The notes beneath the pieces are model-generated. The model searched no databases. It worked only from the letters and a program-made list of their open reading frames with translations, and was not told the DNA's origin. Shown here one piece after another: positions 17,710 through 62,931 of a DNA stretch of 64,000 bases. Location of the stretch: NCBI GenBank assembly GCA_041651055.1, contig JBAZJW010000001.1, forward strand, positions 691,702 through 755,701, given 5' to 3'. A program made the translations under genes and the position numbers. This DNA is from Minisyncoccota bacterium (GTDB lineage Bacteria > Patescibacteriota > Minisyncoccia > Phycocordibacterales > UBA5272). The first letter of the stretch is position 1. The number at the start of each line of letters is the position of its first letter.

Positions 17710-17829
17710 GATGAAACTCCTCTGGTTGGTTTATTTGAAACTACCACAATCGCTTAACATCGTCAACTGAACACTTTTACTTTTGTCTCTCATTGTAGTA
17801 GAGTGGTGGAGGATTTCTTTAACCCTCTA

Positions 17830-18545
17830 AAGGAGTAGAAAGTGACAATAATAGTTCTAGATAGTACAGGAGGCGAGGGTCTCAACGGGATTCTCATTGA
17901 AGTGTTGCCTGACACTCTCATCCTCACTCTCAGTACAGTCTTCCTTGATTCGTGGGGCGACGAACGAGATATTTGCCACCTTCTTGATGCTCTTGAGGGT
18001 GCGGCGGACGAGGTGCCGTGTGGCATTCGTTCCGATGGAAATAATCCAGTTAACCTTGTCATAGTGGACGATCGCCGTGAGCCCGTTCTTGGACTTGTCC
18101 AATCGCTTGCGCTAGGGCTTGGAGATCTTGGAGACTCCTCCGTTGGATTTATTTCGAAGAGACCAAGTCTCCATCCATACGGTCCACTAAAACATGGAAA
18201 GAAAGGAAAGGCAAAGAAATGGTGAAAACAATCTGTTCTTGTGGTGTATGCTGTGAACACCGGCCACCACAAACGTGCCGAATTTTGGCCGAACGTTCTG
18301 ACGAAGCAAGAAGAGGTGCGCTCCTTCAGCTTGGGGTTGAGTGCCACCTGCTGACCCTGTCAACTGAGATGGGGCAGCCTGTCATCCAGGCGACCCCTTC
18401 AGATCCCCATAACGGGGACTTCCACGATGAGGCTCTTCCTGCTTGGGGAGAGTCTGCCGTACCCGACATGCTCTGAAATATGTCCGTCCGTGAGCGCTTC
18501 AAGCTCAAATGCCTTCGAGACATCTCGTCGGCTTTTTTATTTGTA
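17830..18545 (+). other. GC-rich (~50%) 0.7 kb segment without credible CDS; candidate large structured ncRNA or decayed foreign gene, ending in a + strand terminator
   Basis: Only low-complexity Ser/Arg/Pro-rich or Leu/Asp/Gly-rich ORFs overlap on both strands; local stems (e.g. GGAGACT/AGTCTCC); terminator-like hairpin + T6 at about 18500..18545. Confidence 0.2.
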
Positions 18546-18548
18546 TCC

Positions 18549-18577
18549 TTGATATATAACGATTTTTATGGTATAAT
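18549..18577 (+). promoter_or_regulatory. Sigma70-type promoter TTGATA-N17-TATAAT with TGg extension; predicts a near-leaderless mRNA for the 18587 gene
   Basis: -35 18549..18554, -10 18572..18577; ATG at 18587, only about 9 nt after the -10. Confidence 0.6.
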
Positions 18578-18586
18578 GCACACCTC

Positions 18587-19105
18587 ATGAAATGGGTAAT
18601 TTTTACAGGGACATGGCGTCTCACGAATAAAGAAGTTGAGAATGATGTACGCCTCGCTGCAAGGCGGGTTTTTGAAAATGGTGATGGACTAGTCACGGGA
18701 GGTGCTACAGGAGTGGACTTTTTTGCCATGGATGAATTTGTAAAACTTAACCCAGAATGTACTCGTATACGTATTTTTATACCAGCACGACTACATCATT
18801 TTATTGATGACTATAAGAAAAACTGGAAGCATTTTCCAGTGTCAGATATGGACATCGAAAATCTCGATTATCTTTTACAATTGATTAAAGAGAGGAATCC
18901 AAGTGCTGTGTTTGAAGTGCGAAAAGACAGTGGAGACATCACACAGATAGAGTATGACCTACGTCACAATGAAGAAGTGACTTTTTCTGATGAAGTGTAT
19001 GCTTTCCACGTGAATTCAAGTACGGGCACTCACGATACTATTACCAAAGCACAAGCGGCAGGCCTTCCTGTGACATTGCATAAGAAATATATAATAGCGG
19101 AGTAG
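18587..19105 (+). CDS. Rossmann-fold SLOG/DprA-like (Smf-LOG superfamily) protein
   Basis: GLVTGGATGVDFFAMDEF resembles the DprA/LOG GxxxGxD nucleotide-binding motif; 172 aa; assignment tentative. Confidence 0.45.
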   Translation: MKWVIFTGTWRLTNKEVENDVRLAARRVFENGDGLVTGGATGVDFFAMDEFVKLNPECTRIRIFIPARLHHFIDDYKKNWKHFPVSDMDIENLDYLLQLIKERNPSAVFEVRKDSGDITQIEYDLRHNEEVTFSDEVYAFHVNSSTGTHDTITKAQAAGLPVTLHKKYIIAE

Positions 19106-19120
19106 GCGGTTTCCTTGTGA

Positions 19121-19149
19121 TTGACTCAACCTGTTTTTCGAGCTATAAT
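19121..19149 (+). promoter_or_regulatory. Consensus sigma70 promoter TTGACT-N17-TATAAT
   Basis: -35 19121..19126, -10 19144..19149, followed by AGGAG (19167..19171) and ATG 19177. Confidence 0.65.
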
Positions 19150-19176
19150 GACGACCTGTTCAAATTAGGAGACCCT

Positions 19177-19314
19177 ATGACCCCAGAAGTTCCGCCGACT
19201 CAGGTCGACAAACCCCTGGCTGAGCTGGTGGTTCAGGAGATACCACCGCACCAGCGCTCTCATCTGAACGATGAGAGAATTGCGCAAATGCAGATGCAGG
19301 CGCAACAACAATAG
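19177..19314 (+). CDS. Small protein (45 aa), unknown function, independently transcribed
   Basis: MTPEVPPTQVDKPLAELVVQEIPPHQRSHLNDERIAQMQMQAQQQ; consensus promoter, AGGAG RBS at 5-nt spacing, and terminator downstream. Confidence 0.45.
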   Translation: MTPEVPPTQVDKPLAELVVQEIPPHQRSHLNDERIAQMQMQAQQQ

Positions 19315-19336
19315 TCGCGGAGTAATCCACCGCGCA

Positions 19337-19366
19337 AGCCGCACCCTAAAAAGTGCGGCCTTTTTC
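19337..19366 (+). terminator. Rho-independent terminator
   Basis: GCCGCAC-CCTAAAAA-GTGCGGC followed by CTTTTTCTT. Confidence 0.6.
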
Positions 19367-19440
19367 TTGCATAGTTTTTCGAAAAAGCGTAGGATGAAAA
19401 CTGTTTTTACAACAATAGTTCTTTTTTAGAGAGGTTTTTT

Positions 19441-19971
19441 ATGTCAAATGTTTTGGCCAACGCAGACGCCGCCACGATGTTGTCCTTCCAAAAGGTGATT
19501 CTTATCGCCGGCGTATTCAATGATGCGCGTATCTCCGGCGCCGTTGAGGAAGAATTCATGATTCCCTCGCAGAGACTTCTCGTGAGAGCTTTTGCGGAAG
19601 TTCTCGGCGAAGAGTTTGTATTGTGTGAAGGTGAAATTCTAAATATCACACAAGATACAAACTTCCCACACGGCGCATCTGCTCAAATCCGCTTTGACTC
19701 AACCAGGAAGGTTGTAAACGTGAAGACGTCGAGGTATGAGCATTCATGGCTTTGCCTTCTGAAGTTCGATGTTTGGATAGACGTTACACCTCCCGGATCT
19801 GACCCGAGATGGCTTTCACCGGTGAAGTATTCCCCAGGTGGAGCTCGTCCAGCGTACAGAAAGTTGGACAAGAACAACGAAGCAACTAAGCCGAAGCAAA
19901 GTGACGTTCGCCGTCTTTCGCAGATACTCGATCATCTTTGGCAAGAGGCTATAGGTGAAGGTGTTGCATGA
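19441..19971 (+). CDS. Hypothetical protein (176 aa), GC-rich, ends in TGA
   Basis: No recognisable motif; followed by hairpin GCCGC-CCCCAAGGGA-GCGGC plus T6 at 19992..20019. Confidence 0.45.
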   Translation: MSNVLANADAATMLSFQKVILIAGVFNDARISGAVEEEFMIPSQRLLVRAFAEVLGEEFVLCEGEILNITQDTNFPHGASAQIRFDSTRKVVNVKTSRYEHSWLCLLKFDVWIDVTPPGSDPRWLSPVKYSPGGARPAYRKLDKNNEATKPKQSDVRRLSQILDHLWQEAIGEGVA

Positions 19972-25268: not shown

Positions 25269-25355
25269 GGAGGCGTCGCATAGTGGTCTAGTGCACTACC
25301 TTGGAAAGGTAGCAACGGGGTAACCTGTTCGAGAGTTCAAATCTCTCCGCCTCCG
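25269..25355 (+). tRNA. tRNA-Ser (anticodon GGA), long variable arm, discriminator G
   Basis: Hand fold: acceptor GGAGGCG/CGCCTCC, 3-bp D-stem with GG loop, anticodon stem CTACC/GGTAG with loop TTGGAAA, variable arm about 17 nt, T-arm GAGAG-TTCAAAT-CTCTC. Confidence 0.7.
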
Positions 25356-25384
25356 CTTTGAAAACAATCTGTTCTACTTTTTTT

Positions 25385-25441
25385 CGGAGAAAGGTAGCAA
25401 CGGGGTAACCTGTTCGAGAGTTCAAATCTCTCCGCCTCCGC
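25385..25441 (+). repeat. Direct duplicate of the 3' half of tRNA-Ser(GGA), starting inside the anticodon loop
   Basis: GGAGAAAGGTAGCAACGGGGTAACCTGTTCGAGAGTTCAAATCTCTCCGCCTCCGC is identical to the tRNA from the anticodon stem 3' strand to the 3' end. Confidence 0.75.
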
Positions 25442-25449
25442 AAAATCGC

Positions 25450-25636
25450 GAGCGTACTCGCGACCAGATTTTGCTAGTGCATTTCAAGGAGCGTACTCGC
25501 GACTATGAATATGCCTCCGCAAACAAATATAAAAAGACTACTAAAATCAGAAGTTTATTTTGTGTGAGCGTACTCGCGACCAGATTTTGCTAGTGCATTT
25601 CAAGGAGCGTACTCGCGACTATGAATATGCCTCCGC
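25450..25636 (+). repeat. Two 71-bp tandem units (period 116 bp), each ending in tRNA-acceptor-like GCCTCCGC
   Basis: Unit gagcgtactcgcgaccagattttgctagtgcatttcaaggagcgtactcgcgactatgaatatgcctccgc at 25450..25520 and again at 25566..25636; internal 15-mer gagcgtactcgcgac twice per unit. Confidence 0.8.
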
Positions 25637-25663
25637 TCTGAAAAGAATCAATTTACTTTGTGT

Positions 25664-25747
25664 CGGAGAAAGGTGATAAGGTGAAAGCCTTCACGGGTTC
25701 GAATCCCGCACCCTCTGCTTTGCTCGGGAGAAAGGTAGTAATAGGCG
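25664..25747 (+). repeat. Two further anticodon-loop-to-3'-end tRNA fragments (a different Ser/Leu-type tRNA, then a diverged copy)
   Basis: CGGAGAAAGGTGATAAGGTGAAAGCCTTCACGGGTTCGAATCCCGCACCCTCTGC, then CGGGAGAAAGGTAGTAATAGGCG; all fragments begin with the same GGAGAAAGG junction. Confidence 0.6.
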
Positions 25748-25829: not shown

Positions 25830-26420
25830 CTAATTCCCCTCAGAAATTTTAGCTTTAAAAAATTCTTCGATATCAATCTCATACCACTCTTTCGGAATTT
25901 TTTCTCTAAACCAAATACTTCGTTCGTAGTCATCGAGTTCTGTTGCGATGACCCATGTCAGAATAACGACAAAGACTATACAAAAAACAGACGCTCCTCC
26001 TATAATGAGATTTTCATAATTAAAGAGCATTGAGAGAATTATTAATATACATGATGGTGCTCCAACTAAAATATGCATCATAATAGGTATCTGCTCATCA
26101 CGATAAAGAAGAAATGTTTCAAGATCCTTCCGTAAAACACATTTTGAAATAATTTTATATTCTTTAAAGACTGACTCTACAGCAATACTTGCGAATATGA
26201 CATAAATGAAAGCAACAAGAGGCATAATCATGAAGAGGATTGGATTTTCTGCTTCTTTACTAAACATAAGACCATTTTGAATAAAAACATATTTCCAGAT
26301 GCCAACCATAATAATCCCAGCCACAATAGGCTTGAGGATAATAGGAAGATGTCGTTTCAGTGTATTCCAGTTCCTGTTCCAAGGAATGTAATTTCTTTTT
26401 CTAACGATTGTTGTTTCCAT
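25830..26420 (-). CDS. Hypothetical 4-TM membrane protein
   Basis: 196 aa, four hydrophobic helices, no known motif; first gene after the tRNA-Ser repeat scar. Confidence 0.5.
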   Translation of the reverse strand: METTIVRKRNYIPWNRNWNTLKRHLPIILKPIVAGIIMVGIWKYVFIQNGLMFSKEAENPILFMIMPLVAFIYVIFASIAVESVFKEYKIISKCVLRKDLETFLLYRDEQIPIMMHILVGAPSCILIILSMLFNYENLIIGGASVFCIVFVVILTWVIATELDDYERSIWFREKIPKEWYEIDIEEFFKAKISEGN

Positions 26421-26565: not shown

Positions 26566-28611
26566 ATGCAAGAAAAGATTTCTTCGTTTTTACGTATCAA
26601 ATGGGCCCTTCTTCTGTATACAGGTGTTAGTATTGTTTGTGCACTTTCTCTTTCTTTCTATGCACAAGATGTCGGCCTTCGTCTATTTGATTTTGTTGCA
26701 CAAAACCAAGAAAAGAAATTAATAACCTATTTACGTACCGAAGGGGATTCAATTATAGAAAAAGTATCCACATTCAGTGCGAGAGATGATGTTAAAGAGT
26801 CTTTGCGTCAGAAAGATGTATCAAGACTTACAGAACTTTTGGAACAAGCAAAGATATCCACGGGACTTATGGCCTTCACAGCGGCAGATGCTCAAGGTGT
26901 TGCATTATCTCGTTTTCCCGTAAAAGCAAACCTTGGGGATAATGTGTTTCTTACACTTCCGATCGGGAGAATCGCTTCACAAGGGGCGACAGCTATTACC
27001 TATGGTCCAGGAAGAAACTTTTCTTTAACCATGGCGTCAGGCCATTTGGTTCAAGACAAAGGAATTCTTCTCGGTGCAGTTTTTGGAGGACATTGGTTCA
27101 ATAGTTCTTATGCAAAAGCTTTCAAAACAAATTATCTGAGCTCTTTTTTGAAACAAGAAGTCATTTTTTATTCGAAAGAAGAAGGAATGACCGGGAGTAG
27201 TTTTGAGAGTATAGATGTTCAAAATAAGCTCAGTACATACGTGACACATGCCTCACCACTTATTCAGGAGGGGAGATCGGGAGACTTGATAAACATTAAT
27301 GGAAAGGATTATATAGTGACGAACCATCTTCTTTCTGGAGGCGAAGAAGTGTATGGAGGAATTCTCTTGCTCACTCCTTTACCAAAGACTCTTTTGTTTA
27401 GAAGTTTAGTTATGTCTTTTGTGCTAACACTCCTTTTCCTCATCAGTCTTCTTCTTGTTGAAAAAGTTACCGTGCCAGAACTTTTACGGTTTAAGAAAAA
27501 GCACTTATATTGGCTTCTCCTTATTCTTTCATTGATTGTTTTAGTTACGTTGTGGATGGGGATATATCTTCACGGAAAGTCAGCAACGATGCAATTGGAT
27601 AAGCCAAAGTTTGCCATATATAATTCAACTATAAAGTTACGACCTGAGGCCGGGGTGTACACCATGGGGCATACACAACAGGTTTCTATTGTTGTTTCTT
27701 CTGGTGGGGAAGAGATAAATGCTGTGAAGGTTGGTTTACATTTTAATCCAAAAGTAATTCATGTCGACTCAGTTTCTTTTGATCGATCGATTTGTACACC
27801 AGAAACAATTATTGAGAACAATATTGATAATACAGAAGGAACTATTTCAGTTTCTTGCGTCATCACAGAAAAAGTATTCTCGGATATACGAGGGGTTGTC
27901 GCTGATATTAATTTTACACCAGTCAAATTTGGCGACGCAGCTATTACCTTTACTGACGATACTCACGTGCTTGCTGCAGACGGGCTCGGCACAGAAGTTC
28001 TTCGTTCGATGACGTCTGGTTTTTATAGAGTTTTTGATGATAAAGATTTAGAGGATTCTTTTTCTAAAAATACGCTTATCATTCCCTACTCTCCTACGCA
28101 TGAAAATAGTTCTAGATGGTATAGTAGCAACAACATAACCGTAGCGTGGCCAAAAGTAGAAGGAGCAGACTATCTCTATGAATTTTCAGAAGATGCAACG
28201 ACGACATTCAGTAATCCAAAGAAGATACATGCCAATGAAATTAAAATAGTGGCCCCTCATGATGGTGTATATTATTTTAAACTTGCAGCAAAGAAGGGTG
28301 ATGTCGAAGGTCTTATATCGCGTCTTAAGATTAAGATAGATACAACAGCTCCAGGTATTCCTTTGATTAAGGTAAGTAATCTTTCTGTCATAAAAGATAA
28401 TGTTGTACGTTTTGAATTAAGTTCAGATGACGAGTCTAGTGGTTTGCAAAAGAATTTTTATGTACAGGTTGATGGTAGTGTTTGGTTGCCGTCATTTGCG
28501 AAGTTATATATGCCTTTCCATGATAAAGGTAGTCACATTGTAGGGGTGAGAGTCTTTGATAATGCGGAAAACTATTCTGAGTCGGAAGTGAGAATTCGTG
28601 TTAAAAATTAA
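26566..28611 (+). CDS. Large membrane protein with N-terminal sensor-like extracytoplasmic domain and C-terminal beta-sandwich (Ig/Fn3-like) repeats
   Basis: TM1, about 250-aa domain, TM2-3, then 340-aa beta-rich region; no catalytic motif recognised. Confidence 0.55.
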   Translation: MQEKISSFLRIKWALLLYTGVSIVCALSLSFYAQDVGLRLFDFVAQNQEKKLITYLRTEGDSIIEKVSTFSARDDVKESLRQKDVSRLTELLEQAKISTGLMAFTAADAQGVALSRFPVKANLGDNVFLTLPIGRIASQGATAITYGPGRNFSLTMASGHLVQDKGILLGAVFGGHWFNSSYAKAFKTNYLSSFLKQEVIFYSKEEGMTGSSFESIDVQNKLSTYVTHASPLIQEGRSGDLININGKDYIVTNHLLSGGEEVYGGILLLTPLPKTLLFRSLVMSFVLTLLFLISLLLVEKVTVPELLRFKKKHLYWLLLILSLIVLVTLWMGIYLHGKSATMQLDKPKFAIYNSTIKLRPEAGVYTMGHTQQVSIVVSSGGEEINAVKVGLHFNPKVIHVDSVSFDRSICTPETIIENNIDNTEGTISVSCVITEKVFSDIRGVVADINFTPVKFGDAAITFTDDTHVLAADGLGTEVLRSMTSGFYRVFDDKDLEDSFSKNTLIIPYSPTHENSSRWYSSNNITVAWPKVEGADYLYEFSEDATTTFSNPKKIHANEIKIVAPHDGVYYFKLAAKKGDVEGLISRLKIKIDTTAPGIPLIKVSNLSVIKDNVVRFELSSDDESSGLQKNFYVQVDGSVWLPSFAKLYMPFHDKGSHIVGVRVFDNAENYSESEVRIRVKN

Positions 28612-51643: not shown

Positions 51644-51794
51644 TCTTTATCCAGGCTCGGCTATGAGTTTCATCTTGTCGCTCTTAGCTCCTTGAACTGT
51701 ACCCATTCAGCTTATTGTAGGACACGCAGATATCGTACTGTCCAAGCACAAAATACAAAAAGCGATATCATATGACATCGCTTTTTGTATTTTG

Positions 51795-51867
51795 TGCTTG
51801 GACCCAGGCTCGAACTGGGGACCTATTCCTCTTCAGGGAAGCGCTCTACCAACTGAGCTATCCAAGC
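51795..51867 (-). tRNA. tRNA-Phe (anticodon GAA)
   Basis: Minus-strand fold: acceptor GCTTGGA/TCCAAGC, D GCTC-AGTTGGTA-GAGC, anticodon loop CTGAAGA, T-arm CCCAG-TTCGAGC-CTGGG, discriminator A. Confidence 0.8.
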
Positions 51868-52508: not shown

Positions 52509-52580
52509 GCCCTCGTAGTTCAATGGATAGAACAGTTTCGTCCTAAGAAATTGATGTGGGTCCGATTCCTGCCGAGGGCA
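52509..52580 (+). tRNA. tRNA-Arg (anticodon CCT) with atypical T-arm
   Basis: Acceptor GCCCTCG/CGAGGGC, D GTTC-AATGGATA-GAAC, anticodon stem GTTTC/GAAAT with loop GTCCTAA. T-stem GTGGG/CCTGC has two G-U pairs, and the T-loop is TCCGATT (C at the usually invariant U55). Confidence 0.6.
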
Positions 52581-52765
52581 CTATAAGTAAAACACCTTCA
52601 AGTAATCTTGTGGGTGTTTTACTTATAGCTGTTTATAGGAACAAGTTAGCCTGCGCTGACTTGTGACAGGAATCGGATACGGGGTCGAGGAGTCTCCTGT
52701 TTCGAGTGAAGCGAGAAACGAGACGAGGTGACCGAAAATGTACTCATGGTTCCTGCCGAGGGCAC
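52581..52765 (+). repeat. tRNA-Arg-associated element A: 16-bp perfect hairpin, CUGC-loop hairpin, 68-nt conserved core, then 16-bp direct repeat of the tRNA 3' end
   Basis: Hairpin CTATAAGTAAAACACC...GGTGTTTTACTTATAG at 52581..52628; GTTAGC-CTGC-GCTGAC at 52645..52660; core at 52666..52733; ttcctgccgagggcac at 52566..52581 and again at 52750..52765. Confidence 0.75.
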
Positions 52766-62572: not shown

Positions 62573-62644
62573 GGCCTTATCGTCTATCGGTTAGGACACA
62601 GGCTTCTCATGCCTGGAAGCGGAGTTCGATTCTCCGTAAGGTCA
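62573..62644 (+). tRNA. tRNA-Glu (anticodon CTC)
   Basis: Acceptor GGCCTTA/TAAGGTC (one G-U), D GTC-loop-GAC, anticodon stem CAGGC/GCCTG with loop TTCTCAT, T-arm CGGAG-TTCGATT-CTCCG, discriminator A. Confidence 0.75.
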
Positions 62645-62792
62645 CATCAACAAAAATACACAGGTTCTTCCTGTGTATTTTTGTTGACTGTGATCAGTAG
62701 AAGCAAACCACCTGCGTGGTTTGCGGGAGAATCGAATACGGGGTCGCGGAACTACTTCGAGCAAAGCGAGGTAGTTCTGTGACCGGTTCTCC
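62645..62792 (+). repeat. tRNA-Glu-associated element B (second copy of the family at 52581..52765)
   Basis: 17-bp perfect hairpin CAACAAAAATACACAGG-TTCTTC-CCTGTGTATTTTTGTTG at 62649..62688; GCAAACCAC-CTGC-GTGGTTTGC at 62703..62724; 68-nt core at 62725..62792. Confidence 0.75.
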
Positions 62793-62931
62793 TCACGTTG
62801 TATTTGGCACTCCATTTCCACCCCAAAATCCAAAAAAGTCACCTAAAGTCTAGTTTCCTGAAATACCTTGGTATATAACCCTTATTTATGTCCTTTATAT
62901 TGACAAATAGGCTATTTCCGTGTTGTAATAC

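Follow-up and report, generated by a model that had tools for sequence, protein, structure and literature searches.

We identified in the genome of a Minisyncoccota bacterium (GCA_041651055.1) what we consider, with moderate confidence, to be a complete copy of a small integrative element that encodes no protein, inserts in the tRNA and transfer-messenger RNA (tmRNA) genes of Patescibacteria, and carries a folded module that would be its attachment site. The copy lies behind a tRNA-Arg gene, at positions 52566 to 52765 of the window, by which we mean the whole stretch of 64,000 nucleotides that was analyzed (contig JBAZJW010000001.1, positions 691,702 to 755,701 of the forward strand). A second copy follows a tRNA-Glu gene in the same window. 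The original prediction, made from the letters of the window, had described these two structured copies, and all the features that it listed are present. The family to which they belong counts about 40 copies in metagenome-assembled genomes (MAGs) of Patescibacteria. It matches no RNA or mobile-element family that could be tested here and is previously undescribed.

The copies are built in a common order. From 5' to 3', the tRNA gene is followed by a hairpin (T1), a linker of 1 to 8 nt, a second hairpin (H1), a single G, an antisense copy of tRNA positions 65 to 54 (A'), the sequence TA(C)GGG, a third hairpin (P2), and tRNA sequence from C56 on (the sense copy, A). The unit is about 150 to 190 bp long, with ~170 bp being typical. 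A' pairs with A to form a helix, P1, which abuts P2 and leaves an 8-nt bulge on the 5' side only. In many copies, the acceptor 3' strand recurs in antisense after T1 and prolongs this hairpin into the end of the tRNA. The antisense copy of the 3' part of the tRNA is usually split by H1, between positions 66 and 65. The consensus H1 is a 9-bp hairpin with the loop C-U-N-C, and P2 is a conserved 17-bp hairpin. The downstream sense repeat (the direct repeat) varies among copies from 6 to 35 nt. The features of the two window copies, and of a third member of the family, are the following.

52509..52581, plus strand: tRNA-Arg(CCT), target gene of copy 1 (ARAGORN; Rfam tRNA, 54.5 bits)
52566-52581, plus strand: direct repeat 1, the last 16 nt of tRNA-Arg (exact 16-mer ttcctgccgagggcac)
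52581..52628, plus strand: T1 of copy 1, a hairpin with a 16-bp perfect stem (52581-52596 with 52613-52628; read from the sequence)
52641..52664, plus strand: H1 of copy 1, a 10-bp hairpin with a CUGC loop (8 of the 9 H1 pairs covary across 26 copies)
52667..52677, plus strand: A' of copy 1, CAGGAATCGGA, exact antisense of tRNA-Arg positions 54-64 and 5' strand of P1
52678..52683, plus strand: joint TACGGG of copy 1 (nearly invariant in the 26-copy alignment)
52684..52732, plus strand: P2 of copy 1, GTCG...UUCGAG-YR-AAGCGAG...GUGAC (covariance model, 44.8 bits)
52733..52765, plus strand: displaced sense copy of tRNA-Arg from C56, 3' strand of P1
52778..52793, plus strand: native intrinsic terminator of the tRNA-Arg locus, pushed downstream by the insertion (terminator scan; flank shared with locus L073)
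62573..62645, plus strand: tRNA-Glu(CTC), target gene of copy 2 (ARAGORN, Rfam)
62642..62693, plus strand: T1 of copy 2, an 18-bp perfect stem that reaches, with one bulge, into the tRNA acceptor 3' end
62703..62724, plus strand: H1 of copy 2, a 9-bp stem with a CUGC loop
62726..62736, plus strand: A' of copy 2, GGAGAATCGAA, antisense of tRNA-Glu positions 54-64
62737..62783, plus strand: joint TACGGG and P2 of copy 2 (P2 at 62743-62783), consensus form with the loop AGCAAAG (covariance model, 108.7 bits)
62784..62792, plus strand: truncated sense copy of copy 2, cggttctcc, tRNA positions 56-64 with A58 changed to G, 3' strand of P1
51651..51803, minus strand: third, decayed family member behind tRNA-Phe (51794-51867, minus strand; alignment with the fuller tRNA-Phe element in L085)

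In copy 1, the joint and the two A residues before it make up the 8-nt bulge between P1 and P2, and P2 is longer than in the consensus version. The sense copy opens with CGA and continues, after an inserted mini-hairpin of 14 nt (52736-52749), with TTCCTG..., which is direct repeat 2 (ttcctgccgagggcac, 52750-52765). The exact 16-mer that had been reported as a repeat of the tRNA 3' end is there, but it is only part of the repeat, which actually begins at C56, as in the other copies, and is interrupted by the mini-hairpin. This mini-hairpin (RYG-TACT-CRY, between A58 and T59 of the sense arm) is found in one sublineage, comprising window copy 1, L024 (aagcgtactcgcgg), and L085 (aacgaagtgg); its stem covaries (ATG/CAT vs GCG/CGC), and it makes P1 a three-way junction. 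The distal part of the repeat has decayed in copy 2, while its relative L063 retains about 19 nt of it. The copy behind tRNA-Phe consists of a 27-bp hairpin that runs into the acceptor 3' strand, a decayed CUGC hairpin, and a shortened core of the subfamily that we call type C, and it carries a partial T-arm repeat, ccgagcctgg. It scores below significance with the covariance model. Counting this decayed copy, three of the five tRNA genes in the window have a family member behind them. The 21-nt core pattern occurs at only two sites in the window, the two copies, where 0 matches are expected (100 shuffles, up to 3 mismatches).

That the unit is an insertion can be seen by comparing empty and filled sites. 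One such pair was found via a neighboring glutaredoxin (Grx) gene. In GCA_040384045.1 (L087), a tRNA-Arg(CCT) gene convergent with the Grx gene has an empty site, and a terminator, ACAAAATCCGCC-atat-GGCGGATTTTGT, comes immediately after the tRNA. L085 has the same Grx/tRNA-Arg context plus 171 extra nucleotides, which contain no open reading frame (ORF). There, the orthologous terminator stands after the second copy of ttcctggcgagggcac (pairwise score of 19, vs 7 after the first copy, on the T1 side), and T1 is absent from the empty site. This comparison indicates that T1, H1, A', and P2 are borne by the element and that the second copy of the tRNA end and the native terminator are displaced chromosomal DNA. 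A syntenic tRNA-Met gene is empty in L006 and filled in L015. Window copy 1 and L073 share the flank gtgagatagaccga after the second repeat, and their interiors differ throughout. In most copies, the repeat ends 0 to 4 nt past the end of the tRNA and T1 is unrelated to the native terminator, which is as expected if the element supplies its own tRNA end. The idea that T1 is always a copy of the native terminator was rejected; it is true for L060 and partly for L015. Relatives reached via an RNase_T neighbor had mostly lost synteny. The original prediction had offered remnant attL/attR cores of a small tRNA-targeting element as one identity. The integrative insertion is borne out by the empty and filled sites, but "remnant" does not fit, since the unit is complete and recurrent.

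The alignment of 26 copies supports the folded structure. In this alignment, 93% of cells are paired, compared to 79% in shuffles, and 19 pairs have changed on both sides. The compensatory changes first noticed between the two window copies were upheld here: the covariation score is 0.41, compared to 0.15 for shuffled alignments (0 of 500 reach 0.41) and about 0.07 when the partners are slid. The core is ~90% conserved while the helices covary. In P2, basal pairs covary in variants, with GTC..GAC becoming CTC..GAG in L008 and L014 and GCTACA..TGTAGC in L015. For P1, covariation of the arms is trivial because both come from the tRNA; between L063 and window copy 2, both arms follow a T-loop difference. 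The claim that each copy is matched to its own tRNA also held, as 17 of the 20 copies tested have a perfect antisense match of 10 to 14 nt to the tRNA next to them. A derivation of H1 from the tRNA anticodon arm was rejected, as no consistent relation was found.

The family is widespread among Patescibacteria and restricted to tRNA and tmRNA genes. We searched 185,579 GTDB genomes (one per species) with a core pattern made from the two window copies and found 16 loci, 14 of them in Patescibacteria MAGs and 2 being chance matches. The carriers are Saccharibacteria, Paceibacterota, Nomurabacteria, and Gracilibacteria. A similar pattern gave 49 matches in Joint Genome Institute (JGI) metagenome contigs, among which 11 are real loci and 38 are due to chance (GC-rich, long gaps). 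A search with a covariance model had been proposed as a check, and the model built from the 26 aligned copies indeed added copies not picked up by the pattern. Where the upstream DNA can be read, almost all copies are located immediately 3' of a tRNA gene, a tmRNA gene, or what is left of such a gene, and the orientation of the element is always that of its tRNA. The target tRNAs are those for Val, Arg (three anticodons), Asp, Gln, Ala, Leu, Met, Glu, and Ser, together with several without an assigned isotype, giving at least 10 isotypes. Two targets are tmRNA (ssrA) genes (L013 1664-2206 and L024 8551-9102), where the arms match the T-arm and acceptor end of the tmRNA; both genes were missed by ARAGORN and called by Rfam. 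A type B subfamily (L002, L042, and L008) has a continuous antisense arm and an additional hairpin in the joint, and type C, behind tRNA-Phe, has a longer core (L085, L087, and the second unit of L019). Decayed, tandem, and solo-right-end copies all occur. Solo right ends (..tttgtgac plus a copy of the tRNA T-arm, the rest of the element being missing) are present in L002 (2085-2110) and L004 (2375-2395) and suggest deletion between repeated copies of the tRNA end. L043 (5880-6840, minus strand) has an intact tRNA-Ser, behind which come a small NTF2-like ORF, a degenerate pseudo-tRNA-Ser without a T-arm, and only then the element; it seems that a different cargo element integrated upstream of an older copy.

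In Saccharibacteria, the module bounds gene cassettes. It recurs every 1 to 1.3 kb in arrays (L008 2780-5170, L014 2430-5300, and L001 6700-7979) with an integron-like layout. Each unit consists of the core, the copy of the tRNA end, a promoter, one small ORFan, a terminator, a degenerate tRNA end, and T1-A'-H1-A', followed by the next core. The promoter, TTGACA-17-TATACT, is conserved and lies 0 to 4 nt after the copy of the tRNA end. One unit differs in that its cargo is placed between H1 and A'. All three array loci end or are truncated before they reach the side next to the tRNA. The scanned cargo ORFs of the arrays have no Pfam family except one NADAR domain. In L003 (2220-4200), a Thoeris ThsA Macro-domain gene and an S24 peptidase gene adjoin a 182-nt tandem repeat of 2.5 units that holds two alternating core types of the element; the NADAR, ThsA Macro, and S24 peptidase families are the only ones that Pfam recognized in cargo ORFs. 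Tracing the HsdR neighbor of a Saccharibacteria array led to its type I restriction-modification (R-M) operon elsewhere, in contexts without arrays. This operon (Fic, HsdM, DUF2130, HsdS, AAA_13, and HsdR) is nearly identical in L080, L081, and L014 (34-2421), which come from three metagenomes, with its HsdR being 95 to 98% identical among them. As the genomic contexts differ, the operon itself appears to move between genomes of the candidate phyla radiation (CPR).

The element has no coding capacity, and the sequences around it point to no partner enzyme so far. The ORFs of at least 100 amino acids scanned in the window are housekeeping genes or have no family, and none has a Pfam match to an integrase or other recombinase, a transposase, a reverse transcriptase (RT), or TnpB. 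Array cargo and neighboring ORFs scanned individually likewise gave no Pfam match to a recombinase, including an integrase of the element's own, a transposase, or an RT. An all-versus-all blastp of the ORFs from 24 loci revealed only synteny pairs and no recurring neighbor gene family. A pooled Pfam scan of 77 neighboring ORFs showed no recurrent family among the best 25 of 89 families, a comparison that a lone integrase could escape. The original prediction could not place the element in a known family, and no RNA family matched it here either. With Rfam 15, only tRNAs pass in the window, and over both copies at E values up to 10 we saw only spurious microRNA and U3 hits far below threshold. 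On 20 related loci, Rfam found tRNA and tmRNA only, and ARAGORN, together with Rfam, called only the upstream tRNA or tmRNA and did not recognize the element as a tRNA-like RNA. By eye, we found no conserved motif of the hammerhead, hepatitis delta virus (HDV), twister, or similar ribozymes.

How might such an element work? The duplicated target segment starts in the T-loop, at C56, which is where we propose that the element enters. The insert supplies a replacement tRNA 3' end, T1, A' usually split by H1, an 8-nt G-rich joint, and P2, and the original tRNA 3' end (A) and the native terminator are displaced downstream. A' and A pair as P1, stacked directly on P2, so that one top strand alone could re-form the tRNA gene's duplex, from the T-loop on, in the shape of a hairpin next to the conserved bulge and helix. 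By analogy with integron attC and the CTX phage attP(+), the folded module may be the attachment site for a recombinase encoded elsewhere, and its arms would need to match the target for the site to form. We infer that the elements are still mobile and that DNA is the active form, with the folded top strand acting as a putative attachment site that imitates the target duplex. The arms could become matched to a tRNA through homologous recombination that carries the element from one genome to the same tRNA gene of another, through gene conversion within the palindromes, or through rare template switching; these are candidate routes.

A more far-reaching form of this proposal is that the module is the tRNA-gene counterpart of attC. 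A fold of one strand would mimic the target duplex, and a trans-acting recombinase, possibly a housekeeping one, would capture the unit into the T-loop, with the target set by the arms. The unit could travel bare or with a promoter and a single gene, which may give rise to the cassette arrays at CPR tRNA genes, and target choice by arm complementarity would in principle be reprogrammable. We put this forward only tentatively and would give it about one chance in four.

Several observations weigh against an integrative element with a DNA attachment site. The proposed mechanism gives no explanation of how both arms get matched to a new tRNA. No recombinase could be linked to the element among the ORFs scanned, and no excised form was seen. 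Neither viral contigs nor the records of phages and plasmids yielded a real match: the strict pattern found 0 in the viral contigs, the 4 matches of a relaxed pattern all lie in one GC-rich phage coding sequence and are due to chance, and blastn found nothing in the phage and plasmid records. The repeats at the tRNA-Met gene of L015 and in L060 extend 16 to >27 nt into the locus-specific trailer, which homologous recombination or gene conversion fits better than a fixed attP. T1 was not called by the terminator scan, and the statement that the module comes after a terminator rests on the build of T1, which resembles the native tRNA terminators of empty sites (A-tract, stem, T-tract). Finally, G.U pairs that hardly vary and an apical loop resembling GNRA (A-GCAA/GCGA/GUGA-AG) are hallmarks of RNA.

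These last features lead to the explanation that the module is a structured noncoding RNA (ncRNA), cotranscribed with the tRNA or read through from it and acting as a decoy, a processing element, a regulator, or an RNA needed by the element. P1 and an acceptor-like pairing would then mimic the acceptor and T-arm of the cognate tRNA. A new tRNA-linked ncRNA was one of the identities first suggested, and the part of it that stands is the top-strand-specific fold with conserved G.U pairs: P2 has 73 G.T cells compared to 3 A.C cells in the alignment. The constant orientation with the tRNA also fits, as do the A-GNRA-AG loop in most copies, the RNA folding z score of -8.0 for copy 2 (62690-62795), and the compensatory changes between the related copies window copy 2/L063 and L002/L004. 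In about half of the copies, the 3' arm of the P2 hairpin and the second copy of the tRNA end could form a 7-bp acceptor-like stem. Folded as DNA, the top strand of copy 2 has a z score of -6.7 (62700-62795), and the top strand folds better than the bottom strand by 3.8 to 6.8 kcal/mol. We favor a role at the DNA level because the module follows a hairpin that resembles a terminator and, in the arrays, directly precedes a promoter, and because the P1 mismatches (10 G.T vs 7 A.C) show no G.U preference. Moreover, about half of the copies have lost the acceptor portion of the second repeat despite an intact core, presence and absence differ between related genomes, and decayed and tandem copies and arrays occur, all of which speaks against an ncRNA, as does the lack of any match to the element in Rfam or ARAGORN. 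On balance, an ncRNA is possible but doubtful, somewhat less probable than the attC-like proposal.

The copies could also be passive scars, i.e., leftover attL/attR sites of deleted double-stranded prophages or islands, with no function of their own. Islands are classically recognized by a direct repeat of the tRNA 3' end (PMC4383910), and the same window has clear scars of another kind behind tRNA-Ser, with an exact 53-nt repeat from the anticodon loop. A scar would, however, not be expected to contain antisense arms, nor to recur as the same ~170-nt unit with the same internal order at at least 10 tRNA isotypes in several CPR phyla, with a ~90% conserved core and covarying helices, and the core is absent from the phage and plasmid records searched. 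We therefore regard scars as unlikely. Slightly less probable still is an RNA-guided, reprogrammable insertion by a trans-acting enzyme, in which the antisense copy would be the guide, as in the bridge (seek) RNA of insertion sequence (IS) 110 elements or the exon- and intron-binding sites (EBS/IBS) of group II introns. Each copy does have, always in the same place, an antisense stretch of 11 to 14 nt that extends across the insertion point (positions 54 to 65), and one scaffold carries differing arms at different tRNAs. The supposed guide is, however, fully paired to the adjacent sense copy, both arms cover the same side of the target instead of its left and right halves, a direct repeat of 16 to 33 nt is unexpected for IS110, and neither an IS110-type recombinase nor an RT or TnpB turned up among the window ORFs scanned or among the array and neighboring ORFs scanned individually. 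An identity as the IS110/IS1111 bridge RNA in particular was rejected, as the scanned window ORFs contain no DEDD recombinase and the arms are mutually complementary and correspond to the same target segment. The group I introns known from tRNA genes of Patescibacteria are a different thing, as they lie in the anticodon loop at position 35/36 (PMC13011429).

A palindrome-associated element of the IS200/IS605 type or an omega-RNA/reRNA scaffold, which the original prediction had also put forward, shares with our element the several hairpins, the strand-specific fold, and the small size of the module, but it is highly improbable and was rejected: the direct repeats of the tRNA end already contradict it, the specificity is for the tRNA T-loop and not a tetranucleotide, no tnpA or tnpB (Y1, iscB) Pfam match was found among the scanned window ORFs of at least 100 amino acids, and Rfam gave no match. 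IS200/IS605 elements make no target duplication.

An integrative element of the kind proposed resembles several known systems. As in the tRNA/tmRNA-gene islands defined by Islander (PMC4383910), a tRNA or tmRNA gene is the target, the segment from the T-loop to the 3' end is duplicated, the split gene is restored, the displaced fragment lies at the far end, and repeated insertions yield arrays of partial tRNA ends. Crossover in the T-loop has a precedent in mycobacteriophage Ms6, which integrates in tRNA-Ala (PMC1762012). Unlike the islands, the element is only ~170 bp, with no integrase or other gene found, and it uses one scaffold for at least 10 isotypes. The logic of tRNA-gene islands is itself already known; the novelty lies in the target's antisense copy together with hairpins that are conserved or covary. 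The tycheposons of Prochlorococcus integrate at several tRNA genes and the tmRNA gene, older insertions being pushed inward with partial tRNAs in between (bioRxiv 10.1101/2020.12.28.424599). Small adaptive or defense cargo and streamlined host genomes are common to both, whereas tycheposons have their own tyrosine (or serine) recombinase and replication genes, none of which we see here. The text on tycheposons describes no hairpin or antisense attachment module, and the word "hairpin" occurs 0 times in it (bioRxiv 10.1101/2020.12.28.424599).

The integron attC site is an imperfect palindrome with a strand-specific fold and unpaired bases, and it is recognized by structure rather than sequence (PMC2727003). 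The module may be a site of this kind: it has covarying helices with an 8-nt bulge between two of them, and its fold differs between the strands. In Saccharibacteria, the modules alternate with single ORFs. In contrast to attC, it has no RYYYAAC/GTTRRRY core sites, the ends of its palindrome are derived from the tRNA (..GGAATCGAA / CGATTCC.., 26-copy alignment), the top and not the bottom strand folds, and the target is a tRNA gene instead of attI. The cassettes also differ from those of integrons in having their own promoter, the outer helix of the module is copied from the target, and no intI was found in the ORFs scanned. In the CTX phage, a 7-kb phage, the folded single strand of attP(+) mimics the duplex of the chromosomal dif site for XerCD, and the enzyme is XerC. 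Here, too, two inverted target copies and a spacer fold as what would be a mimic of the target duplex, and antisense, spacer, and sense are kept at one junction, but the target is a tRNA gene, not dif, and the element is not a 7-kb phage. Like miniature inverted-repeat transposable elements (MITEs) and cis-mobilizable elements flanked by att sites, the element is short, noncoding, multicopy, and presumably mobilized in trans. It is not a MITE, as it lacks fixed terminal inverted repeats and a fixed short duplication: its inverted arms are derived from the target and specific to each copy, varying with the tRNA, its duplication is long and variable (6 to 35 nt), and it is strictly specific for tRNA genes.

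CPR bacteria make up a large share of bacterial diversity and have tiny genomes with few recognizable mobile elements, and how they gain and shuffle genes is poorly understood. The family described here appears to be common in them; it singles out tRNA and tmRNA genes as sites of insertion and delimits the arrays of small unknown genes in Saccharibacteria. If the folded module is a recombination site, it would represent a new route of gene capture, and target recognition by matched arms could then serve in engineering. Because of their duplicated tRNA ends and long palindromes, the elements can mislead tRNA annotation and assembly, and a covariance model for the element would improve the annotation of CPR genomes.

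The window contains some further features of interest. At 25269-25741, the 3' part of tRNA-Ser(GGA), from the anticodon loop on, is repeated exactly behind the gene (25304-25356 = 25389-25441). This repeat is followed by two exact 71-nt repeats with GAGCGTACTCGCGAC hairpins (25450-25520 and 25566-25636) and then a fragment of the 3' end of a different tRNA-Ser (about 25665-25722). These repeats look like scars of a second kind of integration, with the anticodon loop as the sublocation. ORFs without a Pfam family are found at 25830-26420 (minus strand, 196 amino acids), at 17790-19971 (172 to 185 amino acids), and at 26566-28611, where an ORF of 681 amino acids comes directly after the scar region of tRNA-Ser.

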